A stretch of 64,000 bases of DNA from Armatimonadota bacterium (GTDB taxonomy: Bacteria > Armatimonadota > SYMT01). Positions 10,684 through 43,943 of the stretch are shown here, one piece after another (position 1 is the stretch's first letter; each line of letters starts with the position of its first letter). The stretch is taken from contig JBKBRF010000014.1 in the NCBI GenBank assembly GCA_046292385.1, positions 31,955 through 95,954 of the forward strand, in the 5' to 3' direction. A program made the translations under genes and the position numbers. The notes below the pieces were generated by a model, which worked only from the letters and a program-made list of their open reading frames with translations, did no database searches and was not told where the DNA came from.

Positions 10684-13968
<3,285 letters not shown>

Positions 13969-18440: not shown

Positions 18441-18442
18441 TT

Positions 18443-18500: not shown

Positions 18501-18544
18501 GAGGGATGAGAGCGGAGTGCGGAATTCACACCCTGTGCACGAGA

Positions 18545-18612
18545 GGTTCGGTCCTCTGCACTCCGCCCTCTGCACTCCGTCCTCTGAATTCCGTCCTCTG
18601 CACTCCGTCCTG
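18545..18612. repeat. Tandem 13-mer repeat (CCTCTGCACTCCG)x4-5; a shorter 2-unit copy occurs at 48205-48240
   Basis: Read directly: cctctgcactccgcc / ctctgcactccgt / cctctgaattccgt / cctctgcactccgt. Confidence 0.85.
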
Positions 18613-18617
18613 ATTGA

Positions 18618-21158: not shown

Positions 21159-21548
21159 AGGGGATTACGTCAAAGCCGGGCCGAAAGGCAGAGTCGCCGG
21201 GAGCGCGCCGGGCGGCTCCCCCATACCAACGTTGGAGAGAGTACGGAGGTTACCCTTGTTTCCGCACGGCCGAGGTGGCGAACGATCAAGCCGGAGCCGG
21301 GTCGACCGCCGCCCCGAAGCGCGTGCCGGAAGGAGTAGCCTTCCCGCCCCGGAGGGGCGAGAGAAGATAGCCGGGGGTCAGCGCAGCGCAGCCCCCGGAG
21401 TCCGCGCCGCACCCACCGCCGCCCTGGAGGGGCGGGAGCACCACGCCGGCAGTCCCCCGCCGGAGATCGATACTCTCGGCGGGGGACGCGGCGGAGAGCG
21501 AGGGTCGCCAGCGAGCAGGAGCAGGACCTCCCGTTCACGGAGGGTTCG

Positions 21549-21600
21549 GCTTTAGCCTTTAGCCTTCTGCCTTTAGCCTTTAAGGGCCTTTTGCCTTTCA
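21549..21600. repeat. Heptanucleotide microsatellite (CTTTAGC/CTTCTGC/CTTTTGC)x~6, inverse-orientation relative of the 13969-14056 tract
   Basis: The reverse complement gives GCTAAAG/GCAGAAG/GCAAAAG units, the same GCWRAAG family as upstream of dnaE2. It lies between paralogue-2 stop and paralogue-1 start. Confidence 0.85.
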
Positions 21601-23658
21601 GAGGCGTTTCTCCAGGCTCTCCGGGCGCCGGGCCTGCCGCATGAACCGGATTGCGGCCCGGTAGGACGCCGGGAGCCGCGCTGCCAGGTAGACGGGCAGC
21701 AGCAGCAGCGTGAGCAGGAACGCCATCGGGAACAGGCCCGGCCGCTGGTCCCAGACTGCCGCCAGGATCACGACGAGTAGCACCGCCGCGCCGATCGCCA
21801 GGAGTAGAGCCCGTCGCCGCGGGCGGAGGGTCCAGATCTCGAACTCCTGCAGCGCGCCGTGCGCCACCAGCAGCGCCAGGGTAACCGTTCCCCACAGCCA
21901 GACGAGGGCGATCCACCACGGCACTCCGAGGGCGAGCGCGCCGAGGAGCCAGACGGCGCTGGCGCCGAGCGCGCCCGACGAGGTGATCGCCGCCTGCACC
22001 AGCCCCAGCGACAGGTACCCTTCCACCAGCCGCGCATCTTCCAGCGGCGTCAGCAGGAGCGCGATCACGTGGTCGTAGCCGGTATCGGACGGGCGGTACC
22101 CCTCGTGGACCGCGTTCCAGAACGAGACGACCGAAACGAGGCCGCCGATCGCGAGCACGCCGCCGCTGACCCCCAGGGCGACGGAAGCGGGGTCGCCGCC
22201 GGGGGAGCTTAGCCAGCGGGAGAGATCCTGCGGCTGGCTGATCAGGTAGGCCACGAGCAGCGGCAGCGTGAAGCCGAGCGACATCACGAAGCCGAGCACC
22301 GGCGCCACCAGGAGACGCACCAAGGGCGAGTGAAGGTGCCGGGTCACCTGTCGCAGCGAGCGCGTTAGCAGCGGATTGTCGACCCGCCGCGCGTACCCCA
22401 GCAGCCGCTGCTCCAGGCGGTCGGTAACCTCCTGCGCCGCCGCTTCGGGAGCGCTCGGCTTCTCGTCCGGCGCGATGGCCGGTGTTTGGGATTCCGGGCT
22501 CGCCGCGCCGCGCGCCTCCCGCCAGCGGCGGAAGAGGACGAAGGCAGCCCCGGCCGCCACGAGCAAGAGCAGCGGCCCCTCCCCGAGCTTTGCCGCCACC
22601 CCGCGCCAGTAGTACCCGCCCAGGAGCAGGAGGAGTAGCGCGCCACGGAGAGAGCGGTCGCGGCGGATCCGGCGCTCGGTCGGCGAGTCGCCGCTAAAAT
22701 CAAACGTGCTCCGGTCCCAGGCGAAGGCCGCTTCCCGGGCGACGGCGGTGCGGGAGAGCACGATCCACGCGAGCAGGGGGAGCGCGGGAGGGAGCGACAG
22801 GTGGAAGAACGGCAGCGGCTCCCAGAGCAGCCGCGCGACCGCCACCATCACCCCGAACGGCAGCAGTGGGAAGAGCTCTCGAGGGACCACGGAGATCAAC
22901 ACTTCGAACACGGGTCGGAACGGCAGCCGGACCACGCCGCTGATGCCCAGTGCGACGAGGATCCCGAGGGCTAACGCGCAGCCGCCCATGCATCCCGCTT
23001 CGGAGGCGAGGTCGCCGGCCCCGTACGGCCGCCGAAAAGCCTCCGGCCTGGACCAGCGGGTCGATGGCTCACGGGGGCTCGCTTCCGAAGCGTCTTCGGT
23101 CTCTCTCTCGCCTTCCTCGTCTTCGTCCTGTTTGGCCCCGACCGGATGGACGGGAAGCTGCTCCGCGGAGGGCGGGGCCCAGAGCGGCAGCAGGTGGAGC
23201 AGCAGGATCGTCGCGACGTCGCGGGGCTGGACCCCGCCGTACGCCAGGCAGAGCAGGTAGAGCGGAACCGTCCCCAGCGCGGGCAGCAGGCGCGCCGCCG
23301 CCCGCGCCGCGGTGATCTGGCGCACCAGCTCCCGACCCGTGAGCGGGATAAGCCGCAGAAACTCCGTGCGCCCGGCCTCCGCCTCGTCCGCGAGAGAGAA
23401 GGGTGCGGGGCCGTTCCAGAGGCGGACCGCCACGTGGGCGAGCGAGACCCCGTACAGGAGTGCTGCACCGAGGGGGAGCTTCCCGAAGTAGTCCGGCCCC
23501 CACTGCCGCTCCGCCAGCAGCACCGCCGCGAAGACCAGCGCCGGCAGCCCCACCGCCCAGAGCGGCAGCCGCCACGGAAGGCCCTTCCGGCTCCGGCGCG
23601 CGAGGTCCCGGAGCAGGAAGGCGTTATCGGCGATCCAGGGTGGCCAGGAGGGGAGCAT
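21598..23658 (-). CDS. Large polytopic membrane protein (686 aa), paralogue 2 of 3
   Basis: N-terminus PPWIADNAFLLRDLARRSRKG with an internal second module (DNPLLTRSLRQVTR). Contains an acidic cytoplasmic loop (QDEDEEGERETEDASEA). There is a 16-nt gap to paralogue 3, so an operon is likely. Confidence 0.6.
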   Translation of the reverse strand: MLPSWPPWIADNAFLLRDLARRSRKGLPWRLPLWAVGLPALVFAAVLLAERQWGPDYFGKLPLGAALLYGVSLAHVAVRLWNGPAPFSLADEAEAGRTEFLRLIPLTGRELVRQITAARAAARLLPALGTVPLYLLCLAYGGVQPRDVATILLLHLLPLWAPPSAEQLPVHPVGAKQDEDEEGERETEDASEASPREPSTRWSRPEAFRRPYGAGDLASEAGCMGGCALALGILVALGISGVVRLPFRPVFEVLISVVPRELFPLLPFGVMVAVARLLWEPLPFFHLSLPPALPLLAWIVLSRTAVAREAAFAWDRSTFDFSGDSPTERRIRRDRSLRGALLLLLLGGYYWRGVAAKLGEGPLLLLVAAGAAFVLFRRWREARGAASPESQTPAIAPDEKPSAPEAAAQEVTDRLEQRLLGYARRVDNPLLTRSLRQVTRHLHSPLVRLLVAPVLGFVMSLGFTLPLLVAYLISQPQDLSRWLSSPGGDPASVALGVSGGVLAIGGLVSVVSFWNAVHEGYRPSDTGYDHVIALLLTPLEDARLVEGYLSLGLVQAAITSSGALGASAVWLLGALALGVPWWIALVWLWGTVTLALLVAHGALQEFEIWTLRPRRRALLLAIGAAVLLVVILAAVWDQRPGLFPMAFLLTLLLLPVYLAARLPASYRAAIRFMRQARRPESLEKRL

Positions 23659-23674
23659 GGTCCGGGGTAGCGAC

Positions 23675-25621
23675 TTACTCTCTTCGATAGACGCCCAGGC
23701 TCGCCAGTGCCAGCCGGTAGGAAGTGGGGAGCAGCAGGGCGAGCACCACCGGACCGGCGAAGCAGAGGACCCGGAAGAGCAGCCGCAGCGGGTCGTCCGC
23801 AGTCGTGTCGTAGTCTCGCGAGGAGGGGAGTTGGTAGATCAGCTCCAACGCCGTGCCAATCACTACGGCGGTCAGCGCGGCGGGAACGGCGTAGTCGGAG
23901 AGCCGGTCCTTCCGATCGACCCAGCCGCGGAAGGTAAGCAGCGACCCGTGGACGAGCAGCAGGCCGGCGCTTGCGCACGCGACCAGGTAGATGGCGACCC
24001 AGAAGATCGGCGCACCCGCGCCGGCCGCGACCAGCGTCCAGACCAGCACCCCGGCTCCGATTCCCGCTGTCAGCGGTGCCGAGCGGAGCCAGGCGAGGGT
24101 GACGTGCCCCTGCAGCAGCGTCCTCGCGCCGGCGGGAGTCAGCTTCAGCCCCGGAACGTGCGGCGAGGTGCTGAGCCTGAGCCAGATACCCACCGCGCCG
24201 AGAACCAGGGTGACGCTGCCCGCCCACATCGCGACTGCCGCTAACGGAGGGAACTGCTCGCCTGCCCTCGGAGAGAGCACCGCCGCCCACGTGGCGCTGC
24301 TCGTGACGAGGTTCGGGCCGAGGTTGAACATCGGAATCAGGGCACTCCAGGCGAGGGTCAGTAGGGCGGCCTGCGCCCCCTGGCGGAGGAGCGGAACGCG
24401 GCTGCGGAGCTGTCGCCTCACCTGCAGGGTGATGAGCGGGTTGTCCTCGCGCGCTGCCGCGGTGTCGAGCCACCGCTCCAGGGCGTCCCGCGGGCGGTTC
24501 GGGCGGACCACCCGACCCGTCTCCTCCGCGCGGGGGCGGTGCTTCCGGATGCGCGTGGAGCGCCAACCGGCGAGTCCGCCGATCCAGAGGAGCAGGGCAA
24601 AGGCCAGTACGCTCCCGCCGACCGCGTGGAGCGGCAGCCAGAAGAAGCCGAGCAGCACGATGCCCGTCACCGCGCCCAGCACTGCCGCGGACGGAGAGCG
24701 GTCTCCGTCCCGCGTCCCCTCGGCCACGGCATCCGGGGCGGCGTCCCACATCTCGGACGCTTCTCGCCACCGCACCACCAGGTAGACCAGTCCGGCGAGC
24801 CCGACCGGTACCAGCGGGGGCACGACGACGGTGAAGAAGGGGCGGGGCACCCAGAGGAGCCGGAGCAGAACCACTGGCGCGGTAAGCGGCCCTCCCCGGA
24901 GCAGCACCGGATCGATCCCCCCGGCCCAGGCCGCCGCGAGCAGGCGCCCGAGCCACACTCCCACGGGCTGCAGCCAGTTCTGCACGGTGCCCGAGGTAAG
25001 GAGCATCCCCAGCGCCAGCTGAACCACGATCATTCGCAAGGACGACCACCCGAAGCAGCCATCCCTCCTGGCCGGTTGCCGGTCGACCTTCGCCTGCAGG
25101 TGCTGGAATGCGCTGCGGACCTCCAGCGGCGTGGGCGGCCGGAAGAGCAGCGCCAGCATCACCAGTTGGGCCGTGAGGAGGTCCTGCGGCTTCGGGCCGC
25201 CGAGGGCGAGGGCCACGACGTAGATCGGCAGCGGCACCACCGCCGCCAGCAGACCGAGCGCGGCCCGCTCGATCCCGATCAGCCCGAGAATCCGGCGCCC
25301 GTTCCGGGGGAGCAGCAGCCACGAGGTGAGCCGGCCGGTCACCGCCTCCGAGAAGAGGGAGATGCCGCTGGAGCGAGACCAGAGCACCGCGATCCACTGG
25401 GCGGCGACGACCGCTCCCAGCAGCGTGTATCCGGCGGCGCCCGGCAAGAGCGGCCGCCGGATGCTCCACCCGTAGAAGGCGATCAATCCCAGCGCCAGCC
25501 CTACGGGGGACGCGGAGATCAGGAGGGCGCGCCGGAGCGTGCGGCGCCGCACCCACCGCAGCAGCGTCAGGCGGAGGAACGGATTATCGGCGAGCCATTC
25601 CTGCCACGGGCGGGAGATCAC
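23675..25621 (-). CDS. Large polytopic membrane protein (648 aa), paralogue 3 of 3
   Basis: GTG 25621 gives MISRPWQEWLADNPFLRLTLLRWVRRR, homologous to the N-termini of paralogues 1 and 2. An internal second module DNPLITLQVRRQLRSR follows. The ORF-track start at 25729 is rejected as an extension. Confidence 0.55.
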   Translation of the reverse strand: MISRPWQEWLADNPFLRLTLLRWVRRRTLRRALLISASPVGLALGLIAFYGWSIRRPLLPGAAGYTLLGAVVAAQWIAVLWSRSSGISLFSEAVTGRLTSWLLLPRNGRRILGLIGIERAALGLLAAVVPLPIYVVALALGGPKPQDLLTAQLVMLALLFRPPTPLEVRSAFQHLQAKVDRQPARRDGCFGWSSLRMIVVQLALGMLLTSGTVQNWLQPVGVWLGRLLAAAWAGGIDPVLLRGGPLTAPVVLLRLLWVPRPFFTVVVPPLVPVGLAGLVYLVVRWREASEMWDAAPDAVAEGTRDGDRSPSAAVLGAVTGIVLLGFFWLPLHAVGGSVLAFALLLWIGGLAGWRSTRIRKHRPRAEETGRVVRPNRPRDALERWLDTAAAREDNPLITLQVRRQLRSRVPLLRQGAQAALLTLAWSALIPMFNLGPNLVTSSATWAAVLSPRAGEQFPPLAAVAMWAGSVTLVLGAVGIWLRLSTSPHVPGLKLTPAGARTLLQGHVTLAWLRSAPLTAGIGAGVLVWTLVAAGAGAPIFWVAIYLVACASAGLLLVHGSLLTFRGWVDRKDRLSDYAVPAALTAVVIGTALELIYQLPSSRDYDTTADDPLRLLFRVLCFAGPVVLALLLPTSYRLALASLGVYRRE

Positions 25622-25742
25622 GACGTTTCTTCTGATCTGCGGGAGTGGGAGCAAGGGGGAGTGGGAGAGCCGCTCCCTCGTGGCTGTTAACGGGTTTCCG
25701 TTGGGCAGGCTCCAGGTTCCGAATCCCACCCACCGGGCAGTT

Positions 25743-25772
25743 CAACCTGCAACCTGCAACGTGCTAACTTGG
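25743..25772. repeat. Heptamer repeat (CAACCTG)x3 followed by GCTAACTTG
   Basis: Read directly: caacctg caacctg caacgtg ctaacttg. Partner tracts occur at 26881-26970. Confidence 0.8.
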
Positions 25773-25832
25773 AACAGACGTCGCCCACTCTCCCTTGCCA
25801 AATCCGCCCCTCCATCCCGGACCGACGGAGTA

Positions 25833-26537
25833 CTACGTCCCCGGGACCGGTTTTCCCTCGTGGTCGAAGAGCTGGATCGCGCCGCCCGCGAAGCCGGAGG
25901 AGAGCAGCAGGCCCGGCTTCCCCTCGCCGTTCTGCACGCTCATCACGCTGCTGCCGGCACCGGTGGAGAGGAGGATCCGGCCGTCGTCGACCCCGCTCGT
26001 GAGGCCGCAGACGCCGCTGTCGCCGGAGGCGAGCAGCGCCGCGACCATCTTGCCGCCGCGGTTGTAGACGCGGACGCGGCCGCCGTCCGCGCTGGCGGTG
26101 AGCCCGGAGAGCATCGTGCCGTCTGCGTCGTAGAGGTCCATCCCGCCGCCGGCTGCGTCCGCGAAGAGGACCGCCACCGGGCGGCCGTCGCGGTTGTAGA
26201 GGCGCAGGCACGGGATGTTCTCCACGATGCCGACGTCGAGCAGGGTCTCGCCTCCGGGGCCGGTCACGCGCAGCGGCGCCGGGATCTCCCCCCGCTCCGC
26301 CTCCAGCTCCGCCACCCGCCGCTCCAGGCGCTCGATCCGCTCCAGCAGCTCTTCCACGGCCTCTCCTTCCGGACCCCTACGCGATTGGACCCATGGAACC
26401 TTAACGCAGGGGAGCGGTTCGGGTTGCGGAAGATTGGAGAGCGGGTGAGCTGCTCCCACGGGGTAGTTCACAGCGCGGCTGATGCCGCAACCAATCTCAA
26501 GGCGGCGGGGGAATGCTTGGTAAGACGAGATCAGCAT
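25833..26537 (-). CDS. Hypothetical protein: N-terminal coiled coil plus C-terminal imperfect ~20-aa repeats (LRLYNRDGRPVAVL / VRVYNRGGKMVAAL / IQLFDHEGKPV)
   Basis: ATG 26537 with GGAGAG upstream. The only coherent ORF in the 25774-26932 segment. No known domain recognised. Confidence 0.4.
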   Translation of the reverse strand: MLISSYQAFPRRLEIGCGISRAVNYPVGAAHPLSNLPQPEPLPCVKVPWVQSRRGPEGEAVEELLERIERLERRVAELEAERGEIPAPLRVTGPGGETLLDVGIVENIPCLRLYNRDGRPVAVLFADAAGGGMDLYDADGTMLSGLTASADGGRVRVYNRGGKMVAALLASGDSGVCGLTSGVDDGRILLSTGAGSSVMSVQNGEGKPGLLLSSGFAGGAIQLFDHEGKPVPGT

Positions 26538-31922: not shown

Positions 31923-32654
31923 ATGAGCAGGCTCGAGGGGAAGACGGCAGTCGTGACCGGCGGCAACCGGGGGATCGGGGCGGCGATCGCGCGGGCGATG
32001 GCAAAGGAAGGCGCCTCCGTGGTGGTGGCGGCGCGAGACGCCGCGCGGCTGGAGGAGGTCGCCGCCGGCATCGCGGCAGAGGGCGGCGCGGCGCTGGCGG
32101 TGCCGACCGACGTGACCGACGAGGCGCAGGTGGAGGCGCTCTTCCGCCAGGCGGTGGAGCGGTTCGGGAAGGTCGACATCCTGGTCAACAACGCCGGCGC
32201 CTTCGACGGCGGCCCGCTGGAGGAGCTCTCCCTGGAGACCTGGGAGAAGGTGATGGCGGTCAACCTGCGCGGCCCGTTCCTCTGCACCCGCGCCGCCTTC
32301 CGGCTGATGAAGGAGCAGGGCGGCGGCCGCATCATCAACATCGCCAGCATCTCCGCCCAGCGGGTGCGCCCCCACTCCGCCCCCTACAGCACCAGCAAGC
32401 ACGGTCTCTGGGGCCTCACGCAGGTCACCGCCCTGGAAGGCCGCCCGTACGGCATCGCCGCGAGCTGCCTCCACCCCGGCAACACCCTGAACGAGCGCCG
32501 CGCCCAGCGCGCCACGGAGCAGGACGAAGAGCCGATGATGAGCTGCGAGGAGCTGGCCGAGACCGCCCTGCTGATGGCTTCGCTGCCGCCCCACGTGAAC
32601 ATGCTGGAAGCGATTGTACTGCCGGTGGAGCAGCTCTACGTCGGGCGTGGCTAG
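31923..32654 (+). CDS. Short-chain dehydrogenase/reductase (SDR); its 3' ~190 bp is duplicated at 38209-38400
   Basis: ATG 31923 follows GGGAGAGAGG. TGGNRGIG, NNAG and S...YSTSK motifs. 243 aa. Confidence 0.85.
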   Translation: MSRLEGKTAVVTGGNRGIGAAIARAMAKEGASVVVAARDAARLEEVAAGIAAEGGAALAVPTDVTDEAQVEALFRQAVERFGKVDILVNNAGAFDGGPLEELSLETWEKVMAVNLRGPFLCTRAAFRLMKEQGGGRIINIASISAQRVRPHSAPYSTSKHGLWGLTQVTALEGRPYGIAASCLHPGNTLNERRAQRATEQDEEPMMSCEELAETALLMASLPPHVNMLEAIVLPVEQLYVGRG

Positions 32655-32826
32655 CGGGTTCCACAGTCGACACCGCATGTCAGGCAACGGGATCTAAACA
32701 GAGGTCCAGATTCAGAGTTGCCGTCAACGGGCACAGCGGTGTTCTTGATTGATGGCTCGTGTCCGGCCGGAGCAGATTACCGGGCCACGCAGTGTAGCTG
32801 GCTGTTGACGAGAATGAGCAGGGGAA

Positions 32827-34182
32827 ATGTCGGGGCAGGGTAAAGTTCACACTTCGGAAGACGAAACCGCACGAGGAACGCTGGTTACGAAGTCGTCGGA
32901 AGCGCTCGAGCAAATGCTGAGAGACTATCAAGTGAGCCAGCGTCCACTTGAGGTGAATTTCAGGACCCTCGTGGGAGCGATACCGATACATGATCTTACC
33001 CATTCAATTTGCCCCTATCCCGCGCGCCTTCTCCGCCAGATCCCTCGCTTCTTTCTCCATTGCGAGCAACTTTCGACGCGGGATACGGTCGTGGTCGATC
33101 CATTTTGCGGTTCAGGCACGGTGCTAGTGGAGGCGGTAGCGGCCGGCAAACAGGCTTGGGGCATAGACAAGAACCCTTTCGCTCGTCTGCTTTCGCAGGT
33201 GAAAACCACCCATGTAGATTGCCAAGCGGCAAATGCCGCGGCGTTAGCGGTGCTCGAAAGGGCGAAAAGGAGCCGAACGGTTGTAGAACCGGAAATAGTT
33301 AATGCTGAACTCTGGTTTGCACCCAAGGTTAGGAGCGCTCTGCGGCGAATAAAAGGAGCGATCAGCGATTCGAAGCTCCCAATCGAAATAGAGAGATACC
33401 TACTCGTCTGTTTAGCCGTTACCGCCGATAAGTGTAGTTTACGTGATCGGCGCATCCCCGTACCCGTTCGTCGTAGCGACTGGCAGCAGTTCTCAGTGAA
33501 GCAAGACTCCCGAACCGTATGGATGAGTTTTGAAGCTGTAGCACATGCAGTCGCCGCTCGGATAAGCGGATTGCCAAAGTCCACCGGAGCCGCATTCGTA
33601 TATGGGGATGACGCACTCAACGTAGATGAATTCTATGACGCTTCGATGTCAGGAATAATTCAAAGACCGAGTTTGCTCGTCACAAGTCCGCCCTACGGGG
33701 CGGCGCAAAAGTACATCCGAAGCAGCAGCCTCGCTATCGGGTGGACTGGACTGGCAAGCCCGAAGGGCCTAACGCAGCTCGAAAGAGAACTCATCGGAAG
33801 AGAACATTTAAGAAAGCCCGATTTGGAGATGCTGCAATCTCCATCTCCGCTGATTGACCATGAAATCAGATGCATCTTCAAGAGAGATCCTCAGCGGGCG
33901 GCGATATATGCGGAGTACTTCAGAGCCATGGATAAGGCGATAGCAGCCTTCGGAAGACTCCTGCAGCCGGGAGCATTCTCGGTAGTCATAGCAGGAACCA
34001 ATATAGTTGCTGGCAGGATGATTGAGACACACAGATTCCTACGAGATCTTTCGGTGAATCACGGATTCTCGCCAGTGCTAGAACTGAGAGACACAATTCG
34101 GGGTAGGACTCTGCTGACTAAGCGCGCATCTACTGCGAGACCGCTGTCACACGAAACCATCCATGTTCTCCAGAGGAGGTAA
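32827..34182 (+). CDS. DNA amino-methyltransferase (N6-adenine or N4-cytosine), orphan (no recognisable cognate endonuclease)
   Basis: Motif I VVVDPFCGSGT (FxGxG), then ~190 aa later motif IV SPPY. This order with a long intervening region suggests an alpha/gamma-class MTase. 451 aa. Confidence 0.8.
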   Translation: MSGQGKVHTSEDETARGTLVTKSSEALEQMLRDYQVSQRPLEVNFRTLVGAIPIHDLTHSICPYPARLLRQIPRFFLHCEQLSTRDTVVVDPFCGSGTVLVEAVAAGKQAWGIDKNPFARLLSQVKTTHVDCQAANAAALAVLERAKRSRTVVEPEIVNAELWFAPKVRSALRRIKGAISDSKLPIEIERYLLVCLAVTADKCSLRDRRIPVPVRRSDWQQFSVKQDSRTVWMSFEAVAHAVAARISGLPKSTGAAFVYGDDALNVDEFYDASMSGIIQRPSLLVTSPPYGAAQKYIRSSSLAIGWTGLASPKGLTQLERELIGREHLRKPDLEMLQSPSPLIDHEIRCIFKRDPQRAAIYAEYFRAMDKAIAAFGRLLQPGAFSVVIAGTNIVAGRMIETHRFLRDLSVNHGFSPVLELRDTIRGRTLLTKRASTARPLSHETIHVLQRR

Positions 34183-34187
34183 AGTGC

Positions 34188-35150
34188 ATGGGCAGTGATA
34201 CCGAGGAAGAATTGATCCGTCGGATCAAGACTTTGTCCGAGCAAGTCTGGGAAGGCAGGTGCAAATCTCCAGATATGGGTGAGTGGCTACGGAACTTTAC
34301 CGGCCGCCATTGCGGAAGTGCCGAGGTTGAGCATCTCCACGCGTTGCACCTACTCGCTCATGTCTCATACTTCGGGCTCAGAGAATTGCGGATTCTACTG
34401 CGCGCGATGTATCGCGAACTATTCCGCTATCCAATCGTACAGCAGATTCGATCCGATCTTGGAGGAAGCCGTGACGCGGCCTCAATTCATCGCGTTTACT
34501 CCGATGAACTGAAGTCGACACGTTTTGTGGGTATGGGGAACCCGGCCGAGAGTGGCACGCATTTGCTCTACTACTTCAGGCAGGAGAACCAGCTTCCTCG
34601 AAAGTGCTTCGCCAGCCAACACGAACTCCTCAACGCTGGTATCACAGATGCTAAAGTAGACTTTTCCGACCCCGGTCTCAAACGAGTAGTATTCATTGAC
34701 GACTTGTGTGGGAGTGGAGATCAAGCGGTGCGGTATAGCAGAACCCTGTTGAAAGATCTGCGTACTATCGCAGTAAGGCGTGGCCGGGAATTACAGTTTC
34801 AATACTTGGTACTCTTCGGGGCGGTCCCGGGTCTGGAGCGTGCGGCGACTTCAACCGAATTTGACATCGTGAAGGCGGTAAATGAACTAGATGAGTCTTG
34901 CCAAGTATATGCCACCAACTCGCGGCTGTTTCGGAAACCCCCTCCCGGGATAGACGCGGCGCTGTCGCACGAACTGGCATCCGGCTACGGTGAGGAGTTG
35001 TGGCCGGAACATCCGCTAGGGTTTTCGAACGGACAATTACTGTTGGCCTTTCATCATAACGTGCCGGACAACTCGTTGCCAATTCTCTGGCACGATGATG
35101 AGACGCCACCGTGGAACCCGATTTTTCCTCGACAACCCAAGCTAGACTGA
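34188..35150 (+). CDS. Hypothetical protein with a phosphoribosyltransferase-like PRPP-loop motif (VVFIDDLCGSGDQAV)
   Basis: ATG 34188 with GGAGG SD. The hhhhDDhxxSGxQ pattern resembles the PRTase fold signature. The N-terminal half is unknown. 320 aa. Confidence 0.45.
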   Translation: MGSDTEEELIRRIKTLSEQVWEGRCKSPDMGEWLRNFTGRHCGSAEVEHLHALHLLAHVSYFGLRELRILLRAMYRELFRYPIVQQIRSDLGGSRDAASIHRVYSDELKSTRFVGMGNPAESGTHLLYYFRQENQLPRKCFASQHELLNAGITDAKVDFSDPGLKRVVFIDDLCGSGDQAVRYSRTLLKDLRTIAVRRGRELQFQYLVLFGAVPGLERAATSTEFDIVKAVNELDESCQVYATNSRLFRKPPPGIDAALSHELASGYGEELWPEHPLGFSNGQLLLAFHHNVPDNSLPILWHDDETPPWNPIFPRQPKLD

Positions 35151-35158
35151 GGTGCTAG

Positions 35159-37165
35159 ATGCCAGCGAATCCGTTCGAGATTACCAAAGCGGTAGATTTT
35201 ACTGACGAGCAAATTGTGCAGAACTGGGTAGACTTGCCGGGTGGAGGCTTTCAGTCTCTCGCCGATCCCCGATCGCCCATGCCCAGGTTCTTGGTAGGAG
35301 GAAAGGGTGGAGGTCGCACACATATGCTGCGGTACTTCTCCTATCCGCTGCAGCGGTTACGTCACGGGAATGACTTGCTTTCAGCAATACAGGATGATGG
35401 ATATGCTGGAGTGTATTTCCGATGTACTGGTCTGAATTCTTCGCGGTTTTCGGGGAAGCAGCAAAGTCCCGAAGTATGGAGCGCTGTGTTTGCATACTAC
35501 ATGGAGATTTGGCTGGGCCGTCTCGTCGTCGACTTAATCAGGGAGTTAGGGTTGGGTAACGCGCAACTCGCTAACACCACATCGTCGATGGACTTCGTGA
35601 AAGGCGTGAGAGGTCTCTTTGATGAAGAGATCGAGTCAAGCCTGTCGCAGTTGGACACGCTCGACCAATTAGCGGTCTCCCTTCATAACATCCAGCGCCA
35701 GCTTGATCTCTCGATCAACAATGTCGCTCTAACTAGATCCCTCGATGTGCGAATTGCGGTCACCCCTGGGCGGCTGGTTTTCGGAATACCGGAACTTGCA
35801 ACCCGAACATTTCCGCAGATCTCTGGCTTAACATTTGCTTACCTCCTCGACGAGTTTGAGAATCTAAGCGAGGATCAGCAGCGCTATGTAAATACACTGG
35901 TGCGTGAGAAGCAACTTCCCACGACATTTGTCATTGGAAGTCGTCAGTTCGGATTGCGAACGCAAGAGACGCTAAGCGCCGGGGAAGAGAACAAGCAGGG
36001 AAGCGAGTTTGACCTGGTCGTATTAGAGGATGCATATCGAACCTCGGATAAGTACTATCACAGCTTTTGCGAAAGAATCATTCGAAAGAGACTGGATGCC
36101 GCAGGAGTGGATGTCTATCGCCCGGAGAGGCTCGACGCTTATTTCAGCAAGCCATTGGGAGGGGTCTCCGGACTAGAGGAGCGAGCGCGGATTCATGTTT
36201 CGGAGTGCCTTGGTGATCAAGATGAGCGACCGTGGATCATCCGCCTTAAGGATCAACTTCTGCAGTGGTCACCGGGTCAGGATATAGGAAAGATCATTGA
36301 GGAAGTAAGGTTTCCGTCGAGTCCACTCCACGAGAAGTTTGCAGTGCTGCTGGTTTATCGATCCTGGGCCGATGGCAATGACCCGCTACGAGAAGCGCGA
36401 CAGTTCCGATTCCGGATAGAAGCACTAGCTAATGGCGCGCGCGTGGGAGATGACTTAGCCACAACCTATAAACACTACAGGGGAGATCTCTACGCACAAT
36501 TGGTCTCGCAGTTGCGTCGGCCGCAGGAGTACCACGGGATTGACGATTTCGTGCTCATGTCCGGCTATCTCCCAAGGAATCTTCTGGTGTTACTAAAGCA
36601 AGTGACGCGGTGGTCATTATTCCTTGGAGAACACCCGTTCCGCGGTGAGCTGATATCTTCGAAGGCTCAAACTGAAGGAGTGCGCGAAGCGAGCAACTGG
36701 TTTCTTAGCGACTCCAAGGGATTGGGGCGGATCGGTGAAGAAACGGAACTGGCGGTGCGGCGTCTTGGGGGTCTCTTTCGGGACATGAGATTCGCTGACA
36801 AACCGGTTGAAGTAAGTTGCTCGTCATTCTCAACTGATCGCCGGGGACTCACTGACAGAGCTATCGCCGTCCTGGACAATGCCGTATCGCATAGTTTAAT
36901 ACTTAAGGTGCCAACTGGGCGGCGTGAGCGAAACACTCACGTACTACAGCACAAGTATCAATTGAACCCCATGCTTGCTCCATTGTTTGACTTGTCGGTC
37001 GCCAGAAGAGGCACAGCGAACTTTACTCCCGAGCAATTAGTCGCACTTTTTGATCCAAGTGTCGATGCAGAGCACTTCATCGCTGAGCGAACGCGGCTCT
37101 TGGCGCGGCTGAATGCTCCGTTCTCTACTCCGACTCCGCAGCCAGCCCTGGATTTCTCTGAGTGA
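35159..37165 (+). CDS. Hypothetical protein with glycine-rich P-loop-like motif (FLVGGKGGGRTHML) and Walker-B-like FDLVVLEDAY; large C-terminal region unknown
   Basis: ATG 35159 with GAGGTG SD. The motif resembles deviant Walker A (KGGxGK[ST]) but with R in place of the P-loop Lys. 668 aa. Confidence 0.45.
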   Translation: MPANPFEITKAVDFTDEQIVQNWVDLPGGGFQSLADPRSPMPRFLVGGKGGGRTHMLRYFSYPLQRLRHGNDLLSAIQDDGYAGVYFRCTGLNSSRFSGKQQSPEVWSAVFAYYMEIWLGRLVVDLIRELGLGNAQLANTTSSMDFVKGVRGLFDEEIESSLSQLDTLDQLAVSLHNIQRQLDLSINNVALTRSLDVRIAVTPGRLVFGIPELATRTFPQISGLTFAYLLDEFENLSEDQQRYVNTLVREKQLPTTFVIGSRQFGLRTQETLSAGEENKQGSEFDLVVLEDAYRTSDKYYHSFCERIIRKRLDAAGVDVYRPERLDAYFSKPLGGVSGLEERARIHVSECLGDQDERPWIIRLKDQLLQWSPGQDIGKIIEEVRFPSSPLHEKFAVLLVYRSWADGNDPLREARQFRFRIEALANGARVGDDLATTYKHYRGDLYAQLVSQLRRPQEYHGIDDFVLMSGYLPRNLLVLLKQVTRWSLFLGEHPFRGELISSKAQTEGVREASNWFLSDSKGLGRIGEETELAVRRLGGLFRDMRFADKPVEVSCSSFSTDRRGLTDRAIAVLDNAVSHSLILKVPTGRRERNTHVLQHKYQLNPMLAPLFDLSVARRGTANFTPEQLVALFDPSVDAEHFIAERTRLLARLNAPFSTPTPQPALDFSE

Positions 37166-38127
37166 CGATGGACTACAGCCTTCTTCGCATTGATCAATAT
37201 CAGGCAACGGAGCTTGAAGCGCTCCCCGAGTGGGATATCTTCATCTCCGCCTACAACGAGTCGCAGCGAGTAATCACTGTTTTTGACTCCGTGCGCGCGC
37301 AGCGTAAAGAGTGGGTAATCCATCCGGAGTACGACTTCGAGGATGGCGAATTGCCGAAGACCGGAGTTGTGCGAGTTCTGCATACGCGTGATGAAGCGGA
37401 GTTCTGGCATGACTACTTCTCTGAGGCCGACTTTCATAATCTTCCCCGTGATTCCCGGATTTGCGTCGATGTGACGGGGTTTATGCGTCCGCATTTGATG
37501 CTATTACCGCGGATGCTTCGATTGCTTGGATTCGCTCAACTGGATATAGTGTATTCTGATCCTCGTGAGTATCAATCGGGAGAAAAGACTCAATTCAGCA
37601 AAGGGGCAGTCACTGAGGTGCGGCAAATCCGTGGGTTTGAGGGTACACACCTGCCCAGTGGCGACGAGGACTTGCTGGTCATTGGGGCTGGATATGACGA
37701 CGATTTGATCCGGAGAGTCTCCGAAGATAAGCGCGCGGCTCGGAAACTGATGATGTTCGGGCTTCCTAGTCTTCAGCCCCATATGTATGAGGAAAACCGT
37801 CTGCGCGCAGCAAGAGCCGAAGAGGCAGTAGGCCCGTTGCCGGCACGTTCTCTGTTGTTTGCGCCCGCCAACAATCCGTTTGCCACGGCGCAGGAGCTTC
37901 ACGACAAGATACAACAGTTGCGCTCGACTGGCTTTACGAACCTGTACTTCAGCCCGCTTGGCACGAAGGCTCAAGCACTGGGATTTGCTCTCTACTATCT
38001 GTGCGAGTGTGTGGGTTCGAGTGCGAGCGTCGTATTCCCGTTCGCAGAGTATTACACTCGTGAGACATCCATCGGCTTGGCTCGCGTTTGGTGCTATCGG
38101 GTGGAACTCGATTGGCTGAACGTCTGA
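37162..38127 (+). CDS. Hypothetical protein (321 aa), last gene of the island operon
   Basis: GTG 37162 overlaps the upstream TGA (GTGA); the alternative is ATG 37168. No recognisable motif. Confidence 0.45.
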   Translation: MTMDYSLLRIDQYQATELEALPEWDIFISAYNESQRVITVFDSVRAQRKEWVIHPEYDFEDGELPKTGVVRVLHTRDEAEFWHDYFSEADFHNLPRDSRICVDVTGFMRPHLMLLPRMLRLLGFAQLDIVYSDPREYQSGEKTQFSKGAVTEVRQIRGFEGTHLPSGDEDLLVIGAGYDDDLIRRVSEDKRAARKLMMFGLPSLQPHMYEENRLRAARAEEAVGPLPARSLLFAPANNPFATAQELHDKIQQLRSTGFTNLYFSPLGTKAQALGFALYYLCECVGSSASVVFPFAEYYTRETSIGLARVWCYRVELDWLNV

Positions 38128-38208
38128 ATGTGTCGGTGGAGTTATTGCTCTAGTTTGTTTTCTCACATTGACCACTGGTCGGTTGGGTTACCGGATGTTC
38201 CGCGGCGA

Positions 38209-38400
38209 ACTGCATCCACCCCGGCCACACCTTGAACGAGCGCCGCGCCCAGCGCGCTACGGAGCAGGACGAGGAGCCGATGATGAGCTGCGAGGAGTTG
38301 GCCGAGACCGCCCTGCTGATGGCCTCGCTGCCGCCCCACGTGAACATGCTGGAAGCGATCGTGCTGCCGGTGGAGCAGCTCTACGTGGGAAGGGGATAGG
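38209..38400 (+). pseudogene. Orphaned 3' fragment of an SDR gene (duplicate of 32465-32654), the distal junction remnant of the island insertion
   Basis: Encodes ...GHTLNERRAQRATEQDEEPMMSCEELAETALLMASLPPHVNMLEAIVLPVEQLYVGRG*. This is identical in protein, apart from N->H, to the intact SDR C-terminus, with mostly synonymous nucleotide differences. There is no upstream reading frame. Confidence 0.75.
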
Positions 38401-40236: not shown

Positions 40237-40410
40237 GTGCCACGCGTTCAGCAGCGCCGCGCCGCTGTTAGCTCGAGTGGATCAAACCGGCACACTCGAG
40301 CTACGGCGAGAACGACTGCCGGATTCGCGCCTCGGACTGAAGTCGAGGCTACAGAAAGCGAAGCCCGCCTGCGCGGGCTGAGTTCTGCCGACCCCAGCAC
40401 CACGCTGTAC

Positions 40411-41087: not shown

Positions 41088-43943
41088 TCACCCCGTGCTC
41101 TGCATCCCCGCGGCGATCCCGATGATCGAGAGCAGCAGCGCGTTCCTCCAGGGGTCGTCTTCGCCTTCGTGGTGCTCGTCGAGGTCCATCAGGGCGACCT
41201 GCAGCTTGTTGAGCGGTGCCAGGGCAGGGTTGCGGAGGGCGACCGTCTTCCGGATCACCGGCGCCTGGGAGAGCAGCACCTCGTCGCCGGTGACGCGCAG
41301 GATCCAGCGGCTGGTGCGCTCGTGCTCCGCCGCGATCAGGCCGTGGATCCGCTCCCCCAGCTCCGGCGGCTGCACGCGGGCGGCGTACCAGGCGGCGGTG
41401 CGGAGGTCGGCGCGCACCAGCTCGAGCTGGGTGTTGCGGACGATCGTCCGGAAGAACGGCCACTCCTGGTGCAGGCGGCGCAGCAGCGCCTCGTGCTCCG
41501 GAGACTGCTCCGCGAACCACTCCAGCGCGCTGCCGAAGCCGAACCAGCCGGGGAGCACGTAGCGCGCCTGCACCCAGGCGAAGACCCACGGCACCGCCCG
41601 CATGTGCTCTGGGCCGCCCTTGGCGCGGCCGGGCCGGAAGACGGGCCGGGAGGCGATGGAGAGGCGGCTGATCGGCTCGATCGGGGTCGCCTGGAGGTAG
41701 AAGTCCCAGAAGTCGGGGTCGTGGTGGACCAGCGACTGGTAGACCTCCCGCGAGCGCTCCGCCATCGCGGCAATCGCTTCGGCTCCGCCTTCCGGCAGTC
41801 GGAGGCGCGCGGCGGTGCGGCCGGCGGTGAGCAGCACGGCGCTGGCGATCTGCTCCAGGTGCCGGTGCGCGATCGGCGGCAGGCCGTAGCGGAAGGAGAT
41901 GATCTCCCCCTGCTCCGTGAAGCGGATACGGCCCTGGAAGCTCCCCGGCGGCTGCGAGAGGATCGCCTGGTTGGCGCGTCCGCCGCCCCGGCCGACCGTC
42001 CCCCCGCGCCCGTGGAAGAGGCTCACCTCCACCCCGGCGCGCCGGCCGACCGCCGCCAGGCGGCGCTGGGCGTCGTAGAGCAGCCAGTTGGACGCGAGAT
42101 AGCCGCCGTCCTTGTTGCTGTCCGAGTAGCCGAGCATGATCTCCTGGCGGTCGCCGCGGGCGCGGACCTGGTGCGCGTAGGCGGGGTTGCGGAAGAGACG
42201 GCGGGTCAGCTCCTCGCAGTGGCGGAGGTCCTCCACCGTCTCGAAGAGCGGGACGATGTCGACGTCGCTCTCCAGCACCGGCTCGCCGCCCTCCTGGGTG
42301 CGCCAGCGCACCAGCCCCTCTTCCTTCGCCAGGAGCAGCGCCTCCAGCACGTCGCTCGCGCCGCGGGTCATGCTGATGATGTAGGTGGTGACGGCGCGGG
42401 GGGAGAGGTAGCGCTGCGCGTGCCGGATGACTTCCAGCACCTGCAGGGCGCGGCTGCTCCCTTCGGAGCCTTCCCAGCCGCGCGGCAGCAGCGGGCGCGG
42501 GTTCAGCAGCTCCCGGGTGAGCAGGCGCACCTTCTCCGCCTCCGAAAGCTCCTTGTAGCTCCGGCCGGGCGGCAGCAGCCGGGCGGCGTGGACCAGCTCG
42601 TCCATCACCGCCTCGTGCTCGTCGCTGTGCTGGCGCACGTCGAGGGAGGCAAGGTGCAGGCCAAAGGTGCGCACCTGCACGGCCAGGTGCGCCAGGCCGC
42701 CCTCGTCCGCCAGCGCCTCCGCGTGGTTCTCCCGCAGGCTGCGGCGCATCCGCTCCAGGTCTTCCAGCAGCTCCTCGGCGCCGGAGTAGGCGGGGGCGTG
42801 CGGGACGAACGAGGGACCTTCCGCGCGGAAGTCGGTCAGCGCGGCCAGGTGGTCGAGGGTCGCCTGCAGCCGCTCGCGGATGAAGAGCAGCTTGCGGGAG
42901 TACGGCTCGGAGGCGGCGCGCGCCAGCAGCTCCTCCGGAACCGGGACGGTCTGGTGGTCGTGCTCCAGCGACTCGAGCAGCTCCGCGCTGGCCGGCACCT
43001 GCCGCGCGCTCACGGTCAGCTCCCGCCGCAGCGCCTGCGCGCGCTCCAGGTAGTACTCCAGCACCAGCTCCCGGTGGGAGAGCAGGGTGGTCCAGGTCAC
43101 CTCCGGCGTCACCCTCGGGTTGCCGTCCCGGTCGCCGCCGATCCAGGAGTGGTAGACCACCAGCGGCGGGATGTCGAACGTCACCCCCGGGTACGCCTCC
43201 GCCAGGGCGGCGCGGAGGTCGTCGTGGAGCCACGGCACCACGTTCAGGATGGTGCGCTCGAAGAAGAAGAGGCCGTTGCGTACCTCGTCGCCGACGGTCA
43301 ACGGCGCGGCGCGCAGCTCATCGGTCTGCCAGAGCGCCGTCAGCGCCTGGCGCAGCTCCGTCTCCGCGTGCCCGCGGCTGTCGAGCGGCCGGTCGAGCCG
43401 CGGCAGGGAGGGCGGCTGCGCCCGCTCCACCAGGGCGGCGGCGATGCGCTGCAGCTTCTCCAGCACCGCCCGGCGGCGCGCCTCGGTGGGGTGGGCGGTG
43501 AGGGTGGGGCCGATGCGGACGCGGTTCAGCAGCGCCTGCATCTCCTCCGCGGTGGTGCCCGCCTGCCGCAGGCGCCGCACCGCGTCCCGGATCGATTCCG
43601 GCCGGGCGCGGCCGTTCGCGCCGGAGATCCGCTCCCGGTTGACCCGGATGATCTCCTTCTGCTCCGCGGTGTTGAGGAGCTGGAAGAACACGGTGAACGC
43701 GCGAAGCAGTCGCTCCAGCGTCTGCGGGTCGCGCAGGGCGGGGAACCGGTCCAGCAGCCCCTCCGGCGCCTGCTCGTCCGCGTAGAGCGCGCGGGCGAGC
43801 GCCAGCAGCGATTCCTCGCCCTGCTGGATCAGCAGCTCGCCCAGCATCTGGTCCAGCAGCAGGATGTCGTCGCTCAGGGAGTCGGTGAGACCGATCTCGC
43901 GGGGAGTCAGGGGCAGGAAGCGGTCTTGCGGCGATTCGTGCAT
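41088..43943 (-). CDS. ppc: Phosphoenolpyruvate carboxylase
   Basis: Signature motifs VGYSDSNKDGG and FHGRGGTVGRGGG plus the C-terminal ...MQSTG-type tail. ATG 43943. 951 aa. The N-terminal 79 aa of the ORF track are rejected. Confidence 0.9.
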   Translation of the reverse strand: MHESPQDRFLPLTPREIGLTDSLSDDILLLDQMLGELLIQQGEESLLALARALYADEQAPEGLLDRFPALRDPQTLERLLRAFTVFFQLLNTAEQKEIIRVNRERISGANGRARPESIRDAVRRLRQAGTTAEEMQALLNRVRIGPTLTAHPTEARRRAVLEKLQRIAAALVERAQPPSLPRLDRPLDSRGHAETELRQALTALWQTDELRAAPLTVGDEVRNGLFFFERTILNVVPWLHDDLRAALAEAYPGVTFDIPPLVVYHSWIGGDRDGNPRVTPEVTWTTLLSHRELVLEYYLERAQALRRELTVSARQVPASAELLESLEHDHQTVPVPEELLARAASEPYSRKLLFIRERLQATLDHLAALTDFRAEGPSFVPHAPAYSGAEELLEDLERMRRSLRENHAEALADEGGLAHLAVQVRTFGLHLASLDVRQHSDEHEAVMDELVHAARLLPPGRSYKELSEAEKVRLLTRELLNPRPLLPRGWEGSEGSSRALQVLEVIRHAQRYLSPRAVTTYIISMTRGASDVLEALLLAKEEGLVRWRTQEGGEPVLESDVDIVPLFETVEDLRHCEELTRRLFRNPAYAHQVRARGDRQEIMLGYSDSNKDGGYLASNWLLYDAQRRLAAVGRRAGVEVSLFHGRGGTVGRGGGRANQAILSQPPGSFQGRIRFTEQGEIISFRYGLPPIAHRHLEQIASAVLLTAGRTAARLRLPEGGAEAIAAMAERSREVYQSLVHHDPDFWDFYLQATPIEPISRLSIASRPVFRPGRAKGGPEHMRAVPWVFAWVQARYVLPGWFGFGSALEWFAEQSPEHEALLRRLHQEWPFFRTIVRNTQLELVRADLRTAAWYAARVQPPELGERIHGLIAAEHERTSRWILRVTGDEVLLSQAPVIRKTVALRNPALAPLNKLQVALMDLDEHHEGEDDPWRNALLLSIIGIAAGMQSTG

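Follow-up and report, generated by a model that had tools for sequence, protein, structure and literature searches.

Within a 64-kb window of an Armatimonadota genome (the whole stretch of DNA that was analysed), we identified a four-gene cassette that encodes an amino-DNA methyltransferase (MTase), a phosphoribosyltransferase (PRTase)-like protein, an AAA+ ATPase, and a tandem-CARF nucleotide sensor. We consider it probable (roughly 0.6) that this cassette is a methylation-gated immune system that resembles restriction-modification (R-M) and BREX, dispenses with a nuclease, is probably addictive, and was inserted into a hotspot by Campbell-type recombination. The original prediction, made from the sequence alone, had proposed a methylation-linked defence system with a PRTase or ATPase effector, and we judge this to be the best reading.

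The cassette resides on a 5.5-kb island that forms the sole low-GC trough of the window. As first claimed, GC content drops from about 70% to about 50%: it is 0.70–0.73 on either side and 0.50–0.57 (approximately 0.52) between about positions 32650 and 38200. On the left, GC falls directly past the stop codon of a short-chain dehydrogenase (SDR) gene, where a 172-nt leader 5′ of the MTase gene begins (32655..32826, + strand). On the right, the GC profile bounds the island with a low-GC spacer (38128..38200, + strand) that precedes a repeat of the SDR 3′ end. The island is foreign DNA that was horizontally acquired. No consensus promoter was found in the leader, and a promoter/terminator scan of the whole island returned nothing exceeding shuffled expectation. 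Its ORFs and searches against Pfam, NCBIfam, and PADLOC confirm that no integrase, transposase, or nuclease is encoded within 32655–38200. Neighbouring genes encode GlmS, a secreted protein, and a YkuD transpeptidase. An Rfam CRISPR-DR match at 40357–40380 was rejected as evidence of a CRISPR array, being a lone hairpin and a false positive.

The SDR gene is the insertion target (31926..32654, + strand, with a putative start at 31926; Pfam adh_short, 2.7e-61) and is intact through its stop codon. Repeat search, alignment, and codon analysis define two direct repeats, of which copy A comprises the last 66 codons of the gene including the stop (32456..32654, + strand) and copy B is an orphan SDR 3′ end of 66 codons plus stop (38201..38399, + strand). 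No SDR-like reading frame lies 5′ of copy B, and the flank 3′ of it is high-GC and host-like. The repeats are 199 nt long and 92% identical, close to the approximately 190 bp and 92% first reported, and occur in just two copies in the window. In the SDR frame they differ at 16 nucleotides (5, 1, and 10 at codon positions 1, 2, and 3), 12 of which are synonymous and 4 non-synonymous; the stop codon is retained and dN/dS is approximately 0.11. A null model in which the duplication arose in situ and the orphan copy then decayed neutrally is rejected (p = 0.004), which agrees with the earlier claim that copy B evolved under purifying selection.

The repeats flank the island in the manner of attL and attR and include the 3′ end of the target gene. 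Such an arrangement is the hallmark of insertion by a Campbell-type mechanism, as anticipated by the proposal of an element that integrates at a gene's 3′ end and carries a replacement end. Among integrative elements, phage 21 and e14 insert into a protein-coding gene, E. coli icd, and replace its 3′ end. The arrangement described here likewise combines a target 3′-end duplication of approximately 200 nt, mainly synonymous differences, and an intact gene, but the 5.5-kb island lacks an integrase or other recombinase of its own (32655–38200) and an excisionase. The closest relative of the SDR gene (locus L085) has the same 3′-end duplication around other cargo, a single DUF1877 gene being the whole content between the repeats; the SDR 3′ end is thus a recurrent insertion hotspot. 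The proposed search for an empty site yielded none in a metagenome scan: no relative was near enough to share the downstream flank, and L085 itself carries another insertion. Searches of the window island and its vicinity, of L085, and of a further locus (L013) where the cassette lies inside a tRNA-Phe att duplication revealed no integrase. We propose that the island may have arrived when incoming DNA with a diverged SDR 3′ end underwent Campbell-type recombination with the resident SDR gene, catalysed by an integrase in trans or by homologous recombination. Flanking direct repeats were rejected as a general property of the cassette, since they occur in only 3 of 64 loci and differ in nature each time.

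The four island genes are co-directional and all full length, with intact catalytic motifs. Their tight packing (34182/34188, 35150/35159, and 37165/37162) is borne out by the ORF list as gaps of 5 and 8 nt and a 4-nt overlap. The first gene encodes the MTase (32827..34182, + strand; 451 aa), which matches Pfam N6_N4_Mtase (4.5e-9) and PADLOC MTase_II (8e-31), with a further near full-length PADLOC match at 5.6e-26. It contains motif I (DPFCGSGT, residues 91–98) and motif IV (VTSPPY, 285–290), and the FCGSGT and SPPY elements that had been noted are conserved across 76 homologs. A variable middle region (approximately 120–270) is the putative TRD. PDB profile matches cover the SAM-binding motif only and include both N4C and N6A enzymes.

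The second gene encodes a 320-aa PRTase-CE protein that is the predicted effector (34188..35150, + strand). It matches Pfam PF24390 (3.6e-53; 181.5 bits, cut-off 27) and, over nearly its full length, the PADLOC retron-type PRTase_III-A model (4.9e-29). This label denotes retron type III-A (Mestre 2020), and a reading of it as CRISPR type III-A was rejected. The claimed PRPP loop is real: the motif DDxCGSG is conserved, with D171 and D172 invariant. No sequence match was found between this protein and solved structures, ShosT included, and PDB sequence-profile searches with the PRTase, ATPase, and CARF proteins gave nothing useful.

The third gene encodes a 668-aa ORC/Cdc6-like ATPase (35159..37165, + strand; Pfam PF24389, 3.7e-120) with a confirmed AAA+ fold. 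The glycine-rich GGKGGGRTH that had been called P-loop-like is a genuine Walker A (47–55), in which K49 is invariant and position 53 is lysine in 63 of 80 homologs and arginine in 17. A deviant ParA/MinD-like Walker A (KGGxGK[ST]) was rejected for this segment because the protein has the AAA+ fold typical of ORC/Cdc6 relatives. Homologs do not conserve the proposed Walker-B-like DLVVLED; the actual Walker B motif is LLDEFEN (228–235), with D231 present in 80/80 homologs and E232 in 79/80. Hypervariable segments span approximately 121–180 and 331–390, and the C-terminal half is helical and winged-helix-like. Structurally, the protein belongs to a clade with DNA-bound ORC/Cdc6, MuB, TnsC, and BrxC, and it matches none of the PADLOC 2.0 families.

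The fourth gene (37162..38127, + strand, with an alternative ATG start at 37168) encodes a 321-aa protein originally described as motif-less. It is instead a tandem-CARF (CARF6) protein, as established by PADLOC PDLC01914 (2.8e-103) and a structural match, and consists of two Rossmann-like CARF domains (approximately 1–160 and 165–321) without an effector domain. Its structural neighbours include a viral SAVED ring nuclease (9r8s).

Far from being an orphan MTase plus three uncharacterised genes, the cassette is one conserved operon with the MTase as part of its core: the order MTase, PRTase-CE, ORC-CDC6-like ATPase, CARF6 is common to 77 of 80 loci in more than 15 phyla. The PRTase, ATPase, and CARF proteins co-evolve as a triad (Spearman 0.65–0.72), and the MTase follows more loosely (0.36–0.45). 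A second subtype retains the triad, but its MTase belongs to an unrelated gamma-class family and is encoded at the other end of the operon; this non-orthologous displacement shows that methylation is integral to the system. Members of the family are uncommon and patchily distributed, with 374 clusters (50% identity, E<=1e-30) in a set of 1.84 billion representatives. Rather than occurring at native GC in all relatives at one locus, the cassette sits in unrelated contexts and has a lower GC content than the flanking DNA at 51 of 64 loci (mean difference 9.1 points). It is found on conjugative and mobilizable plasmids, and tyrosine integrases adjoin it in approximately 11 loci; many copies are chromosomal, without adjacent mobility genes. 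In 50,697 phage records, full-length copies are essentially absent, with two partial matches on a bacterial-looking contig. The nearest neighbours (124 flank ORFs) include the defence genes mad2/3, type I MTases, Mokosh, AriA, and Nsn. Also adjoining the core are ThyX (17 loci), dUTPase (6 loci), and MazG-like genes (3 loci), with dUTPase_2 in the second subtype. These dUTP/dUMP/dTMP enzymes belong to four families, three unrelated dUTPase types and ThyX; dUTPase-type enzymes or ThyX occur in about one-third of loci and are absent from about two-thirds, this window included. Cultivable carriers include Rhizobium, Sinorhizobium, Microbacterium, Arthrobacter, Pedobacter, Herbaspirillum, and Moraxella.

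Catalogued families exist for three of the four proteins (Pfam PF24390, Pfam PF24389, and the PADLOC CARF6 models PDLC01911–01925, at the E values given above), so the family has already been seen computationally. The window has a PF24390 protein with an adjacent same-strand PF24389 protein and a CARF6 protein directly downstream, and it has the MTase in the operon, a feature taken empirically from the 77 of 80 loci and the second subtype. Homologs in NCBI and UniRef are named 'ORC-CDC6 family AAA ATPase' and 'PRTase-CE domain-containing protein'. The original description of the cassette as unrecognised thus does not hold for its protein families. It stands at the level of the system: PADLOC 2.0 has neither an ATPase model nor a system definition for the cassette, and full-text literature searches found no description of it and no experimental paper. 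We take Burroughs et al. 2015 (NAR) and Makarova et al. 2020 (NAR) to be the likely sources of the PRTase-CE/ORC-CDC6-like/CARF6 set. PRTases go unmentioned in Shah 2018.

PADLOC, Pfam, and NCBIfam searches support the original view that the cassette departs from the canonical layouts of R-M, BREX, DISARM, Pgl, and Dnd. Unlike in type II R-M, no cognate endonuclease was found beside the MTase, none of the four proteins matched a nuclease family, and genes 3 and 4 fold as AAA+ and CARF proteins. No PADLOC BREX model was matched, and PglZ, BrxA, BrxB, and BrxL are missing; the ATPase resembles BrxC at the fold level only, being half its size and matching no BrxC model, and the MTase is a small amino-MTase rather than PglX, with a PRTase and a CARF protein present instead. 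Among the four proteins, PADLOC found no DrmA/B helicase-DUF1998, DndA-E, SspA-D, or PglW kinase, and the MADS mad1–mad8 set is represented only by a weak local mad2 match to the MTase's SAM-binding motif (4e-6). The CD-NTase or Cas10 cyclase of CBASS and type III CRISPR is missing from the operon and the 124 nearest neighbours, and in contrast to CARF/SAVED sensors of those systems (e.g. Can1), the CARF protein has no fused nuclease or effector.

The closest parallels concern the PRTase. PRTase domains act as the toxic component in both ShosTA and PsyrTA, and ShosT toxicity requires PRPP binding and the DD motif. The cassette protein is homologous to the PRTase-like effectors of retron type III-A, which supply its closest PADLOC models, and, as in all three systems, it is likely a toxic effector that binds PRPP and has a conserved DD loop. 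Its partner genes differ entirely, however, and include no reverse transcriptase, ncRNA, DprA-like ShosA, or fused pyrophosphatase/helicase. None of the four genes encodes an RT, the window has no Rfam retron match, and searches returned neither a DprA-like gene nor a match to a ShosT model or PDB chain.

Under the favoured immune reading, the MTase would mark host DNA as self, with the TSPPY form of motif IV suggesting N4-cytosine methylation, and the AAA+ ATPase would engage DNA and report unmethylated, foreign molecules. Using PRPP, the PRTase would then either disrupt nucleotide metabolism or modify a target that contains a nucleobase, halting replication of the invader or the cell, for which ShosT offers a precedent. 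The double-CARF protein may bind a nucleotide-type ligand and gate or amplify the response. That about one-third of loci add a dUTPase-type enzyme or ThyX suggests that the deoxyuridine/thymidylate pool could be the effector's target or be buffered against it, although the defence model does not explain this association. A more tentative and less likely possibility is an immune system with cyclase-independent CARF signalling. When the ORC/Cdc6-like ATPase senses unmethylated DNA, the PRTase would synthesise a novel signal from PRPP, a phosphoribosylated nucleotide or nucleobase, or would phosphoribosylate DNA bases directly; the tandem-CARF protein would read or control this chemistry, and the deoxyuridine/thymidylate pool would be a substrate source or collateral target.

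The same accessory enzymes bear on explanations outside immunity. Because dUTPase, ThyX, and MazG are typical auxiliary genes of phages and mobile elements, the cassette could serve the counter-defence or fitness of a mobile element, with the MTase shielding the element from host restriction, the CARF/SAVED-like protein sponging or cleaving the host's cyclic-oligonucleotide signals, the PRTase and dUTPase/ThyX refilling pools depleted by host immunity, and the ATPase as an accessory. Its presence on plasmids and near integrases and the viral ring nuclease among the structural neighbours of gene 4 are consistent with this idea. Anti-defence loci are usually variable assortments, whereas these four genes keep a fixed order across phyla, closely spaced or overlapping, and the triad co-evolves; together with the near absence of full-length copies from phages, the many chromosomal copies without adjacent mobility genes, and the defence toxins that are the nearest relatives of the PRTase, this makes counter-defence unlikely. 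Hypermodification of DNA or nucleotides, in which the PRTase (an enzyme type that forms glycosyl bonds), ThyX/dUTPase (dUMP supply and C5 chemistry), and MTase would build or install a modified pyrimidine while the ATPase loads or targets the machinery and the CARF protein senses a precursor, could account for four unrelated dUTP/dUMP/dTMP enzyme families recurring beside the core, an obligatory MTase, and a missing nuclease. We regard it as quite unlikely: ThyX/dUTPase is missing from about two-thirds of loci, the kinase, glycosylase, or transglycosylase typical of known pathways is absent, and the PRTase groups with toxin-type PRTases.

Two simpler accounts are very improbable. The island has att-like flanking repeats and no integrase, as would the remnant cargo of a decayed integrative element in which an orphan MTase travels with functionally unrelated genes. 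This part of the original prediction, however, is already refuted in our judgement by the conservation of the four-gene operon in 77 of 80 loci in unrelated contexts, and the ORFs are not decayed. A housekeeping nucleotide-salvage operon of incidentally low GC would be in keeping with the metabolic enzyme families represented by the PRTase and, elsewhere, by ThyX/dUTPase, but is difficult to reconcile with the rarity and patchiness of the family, its atypical GC (51 of 64 loci), its plasmid and integrase contexts, and its obligatory coupling to a DNA MTase and a CARF sensor.

The insertion architecture documents the 3′ end of a protein-coding gene as a repeated landing site of integrase-less cargo. 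Should the cassette act in defence, it would couple the epigenetic marking of self against non-self, in the logic of R-M and BREX, to a metabolic PRTase effector and a CARF-type sensor, with neither nuclease nor cyclase. To our knowledge, no characterised system has this combination. The cassette is compact (5.3 kb) and comes with built-in genetic handles in the form of MTase deletion, a DD-to-AA PRTase mutant, and Walker A and Walker B mutants. Its study could uncover a CARF ligand outside CRISPR and CBASS and the reason for the recruitment of dUTP/dTMP enzymes. Cyclase-independent CARF signalling, if it proved real, would amount to a novel second messenger or a novel type of restriction chemistry, linked to the epigenetic marking of self.

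The low-GC island that follows the short-chain dehydrogenase (SDR) gene (31926-32654, plus strand) is the sole GC trough of its kind in the whole 64-kb window, with a GC content of 0.50-0.57 at about 32650-38200 versus 0.70-0.73 on either side. It contains four ORFs in the same direction, whose junctions are a 5-nt gap, an 8-nt gap and a 4-nt overlap. Nucleases, cyclases, integrases and transposases are absent from the four encoded proteins. The compositional drop, the tight co-directional packing and the lack of an integrase, transposase or nuclease all agree with the original prediction, which had described the island as a candidate methyltransferase-linked defence or mobile cassette.

The first gene (32827-34182) encodes an amino-methyltransferase (MTase) that matches Pfam N6_N4_Mtase (4.5e-9) and, at up to 8e-31, PADLOC models of Type II MTases, with one PADLOC alignment spanning nearly the whole protein. 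Across 76 homologs both motif I (DPFxGSGT) and motif IV ((V)TSPPY) are conserved; the variability seen in the middle of the protein (~120-270) is what a target-recognition region would be expected to show. We take the TSPPY motif to fit the PROSITE N4-cytosine MTase signature. Profile matches in the PDB include N4C and N6A enzymes alike and cover the SAM-binding motif alone, so they do not fix the base specificity. The second gene (34188-35150) encodes a PRTase-CE protein (PF24390, 3.6e-53) in which the PRPP-loop residues D171 and D172 do not vary across the homolog alignment. This protein also matches PADLOC ‘PRTase_III-A’ models (4.9e-29), a name that, as Mestre et al. (2020; PMC7736814) show, refers to type III-A retrons and their PRTase-like effectors and not to CRISPR type III-A.

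The third gene (35159-37165) encodes an ORC/Cdc6-like ATPase (PF24389, 3.7e-120) and the fourth a tandem-CARF protein (CARF6). In structure comparison, a confident AF2 model of the ATPase (pLDDT 91.6) most resembles PABY2304 and SSO1545, two archaeal AAA+ ATPases, followed by Cdc6/ORC, MuB, BrxC, TnsC and RdrA, which places the protein in the DNA-engaging AAA+ clade. Its Walker A motif is GGKGxG[K/R]TH; the bracketed position is occupied by K in 63 of the 80 homologs and by R, the residue of the window copy, in the other 17. The DLVVLED stretch previously proposed as Walker-B-like is not conserved, and the Walker B motif is instead LLDEFEN (residues 228-235). Variability in the family is highest in two segments, residues ~121-180 (a helical insertion in the AAA+ core) and ~331-390 (window positions 35519-35698 and 36149-36328, respectively), where mean column conservation is 0.27-0.37 versus 0.5-0.7 elsewhere. 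These segments are candidate specificity determinants or target readers and might co-vary with the variable region of the MTase.

When one genome per species was scanned, the ATPase was encoded at 80 loci, distributed across Acidobacteriota, Actinomycetota, Bacteroidota, Pseudomonadota, Myxococcota, Planctomycetota, Chloroflexota, Nitrospirota, Verrucomicrobiota, Latescibacterota, Gemmatimonadota, Spirochaetota and other phyla, with one on a contig binned as Heimdallarchaeota. MTase, PRTase, ATPase and CARF genes follow one another in this order on one strand in 77 of these loci (strictly 76, since the MTase gene of one, L008, is inverted and downstream). Two of the three exceptions are explained by contig ends (L003, L036) and the third lacks the MTase (L026). 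The PRTase, ATPase and CARF proteins correlate well in their pairwise identities (Spearman 0.65-0.72), and correlations of the MTase with this triad are lower (0.36-0.45). The ATPase family is uncommon, forming 374 clusters (50% identity, E<=1e-30) among 1.84 billion representatives, all of ~650-700 aa and without fusions. The window copy is ~60-70% identical to its nearest relatives, and a copy identical to it is on record from an Armatimonadota MAG that is probably the source organism. The island is a conserved operon rather than the orphan MTase with cargo that had been proposed, and we put the probability that the cassette is a single functional system at roughly 0.9.

A second arrangement of the operon (subtype 2) provides a further view of the MTase. 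Here the order is dUTPase_2, PRTase-CE (1.8e-47), ORC-CDC6-like ATPase (1e-136), CARF6 (3.7e-131) and MTase, as found on Moraxella osloensis plasmid p4 (L163, 5296-10819) and on CAKLQF020000018.1 (L164, 5317-10775). In subtype 2 the MTase gene lies at the opposite (3') end of the operon, and its product, a gamma-class N6_Mtase/Eco57I-like enzyme, has no relation to that of the window. Replacement of the MTase by a non-orthologous enzyme, with the triad kept unchanged, argues that the system requires DNA methylation. On the Moraxella plasmid, genes for a NACHT NTPase and an unknown 321-aa protein lie immediately upstream of the cassette. The second contig is filed as ‘Acinetobacter phage MD-2021a’ and carries efp, cstA, kamA, tdcB and tRNA-Val; with this chromosomal-type content it looks like a bacterial chromosome rather than a phage, and ‘phage’ matches of the ATPase are thus probably mislabelled.

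Genes of nucleotide metabolism recur beside the core. ThyX directly adjoins it in 17 of the 80 loci; 6 loci have a trimeric dUTPase/dCTP-deaminase-like gene in this place and 3 a MazG/PRA-PH-like pyrophosphohydrolase, as subtype 2 has the dimeric dUTPase_2. These neighbours, of which L014:12988-14289, L008:12941-13414, L038:2391-2888 and L161:5715-6626 are examples, often overlap core genes; none of the ThyX, dUTPase or MazG-like genes lies beside the window's copy. The convergence of four unrelated families on dUTP -> dUMP -> dTMP implies that the cassette is functionally connected to this chemistry.

Cassette GC content is lower than that of the flanks in nearly all of 64 loci compared (host GC 35-73%), by a mean of 9.1 points and by more than 5 points in 51. 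Ten plasmids, five of them conjugative, carry copies, and tyrosine integrases lie within ~2 kb of the cassette in ~11 loci. In Microbacterium arborescens DSM 20754 (L013, 6461-13207), the cassette and two small unknown ORFs are enclosed by an att-like direct duplication of 137 nt (6491-6627 and 13071-13207) overlapping the 3' half of tRNA-Phe, and the enclosed segment encodes no integrase. Another locus (L025) has a 71-nt direct repeat (7355-7425 and 14909-14979, 85% identical), the copies apparently lying in two paralogous coding sequences on the two sides of the cassette; these could be an IS/transposase pair in a composite-transposon-like arrangement. Of the 124 nearest large neighbours, a minority hit models for known defence genes (mad2/3, type I MTases, MkoA/B, AriA, NsnB), which is suggestive of a defence context.

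In the window, the island is bounded by a 199-nt direct repeat of the SDR 3' end (32456-32654 and 38201-38399; 92% identical), confirming the duplication and the identity originally reported; the window holds no third copy. One explanation would be duplication in situ followed by neutral drift of the orphan copy. In the SDR frame, the copies differ at 16 nucleotides (5, 1 and 10 at codon positions 1, 2 and 3), 12 of these differences being synonymous and 4 non-synonymous (dN/dS ~0.11), and the stop codon is retained. Neutral decay is rejected (p = 0.004), and the orphan copy thus evolved inside a working gene of another lineage, as had been surmised. The closest SDR homolog found in metagenomes (84% amino-acid identity; L085, contig Ga0255338_1044945, 1-1811) has the same architecture, with a 940-nt insert separating an intact SDR gene from a second copy, 295 nt long, of its 3' end (250-544 and 1482-1776; 93-94% identical). 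Its cargo is a single DUF1877 gene (607-1200), the insert encodes no integrase, and its copies likewise reject neutral decay (dN/dS ~0.14, p = 0.005). The same duplication around different cargo makes the SDR 3' end a recurrent landing site for integrase-less cargo. Judging from sequence similarity, which is higher within each genome (92-94%) than between the two (79-83%), the insertions were separate events in which the incoming DNA came from close relatives.

The window island and its surroundings encode no integrase, and insertion could have proceeded by either of two routes: an integrase might act in trans on a cis-mobilizable element, or a circle with one SDR 3' segment might enter by Campbell-type homologous recombination. 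The proposed search for an empty site led to the metagenomic duplication and to no true empty site, since more distant SDR loci lack both the duplication and common downstream synteny. An independent assembly of the island (Logan SRR31360857 contig, 5770 nt) has both ends inside the SDR repeats, as expected from the identical k-mers common to both copies; short-read assemblies therefore cannot reveal whether an empty-site variant coexists.

Elsewhere in the window, a Rfam CRISPR-DR28 match at 40357-40380 (score 35.4 vs gathering 35, E = 0.012) is a lone GC-rich hairpin (GAAGCCCGCCTGCGCGGGCT) with no repeat array; it was rejected as a CRISPR and is probably a terminator-like stem. An 85-nt tRNA-Arg(CCG) called by ARAGORN (43067-43151) sits in long high-GC ORFs, has no Rfam tRNA match at the gathering threshold and may be a false positive. 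AT skew is persistently positive (0.17-0.24) over ~8 kb (18000-26000), a region with several long minus-strand ORFs (18618-21158, 21598-23658 and 22971-25556).

The cassette was found not to be a member of Type II R-M, BREX, DISARM/Dnd, MADS, CBASS/type III CRISPR, retron type III-A or ShosTA, consistent with the earlier view that its layout departs from R-M, BREX, DISARM and Dnd. The suggestion that it was unrecognised is not supported, since HMM searches match catalogued families (Pfam PF24389 and PF24390, PADLOC CARF6) and database homologs are named accordingly. These families reportedly trace, in all likelihood, to Burroughs et al. 2015 and Makarova et al. 2020. The cassette has thus already been noticed computationally, and the window contains a new, divergent member; we found neither experimental work on it nor a system-level model.

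How the components might work together is suggested by comparison with toxin systems. A PRTase domain is the toxic moiety of ShosTA and PsyrTA, and ShosT toxicity requires PRPP binding and a DD motif and disrupts purine metabolism (PMC11961720, PMC12961424). With its retained DD motif and homology to retron effectors, the window PRTase is our preferred effector, an assignment slightly more likely than not. Given an obligatory MTase, logic resembling R-M or BREX would be simplest: methylated DNA would be self, and unmethylated DNA would trigger the ATPase, which would then license the PRTase. A nucleotide-type ligand, probably bound by the double-CARF protein, would gate or amplify the response; as the cassette has no cyclase, this ligand could be a PRTase product, derived from infection or a breakdown product of RNA or nucleotides. 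By analogy with ShosA, which counteracts ShosT indirectly, the dUTPase and ThyX accessories might, speculatively, buffer the host against a leaky effector. This specific gating scheme is tentative and rather doubtful; the broader proposal, that the cassette functions as a defence or addiction system, seems reasonably probable.
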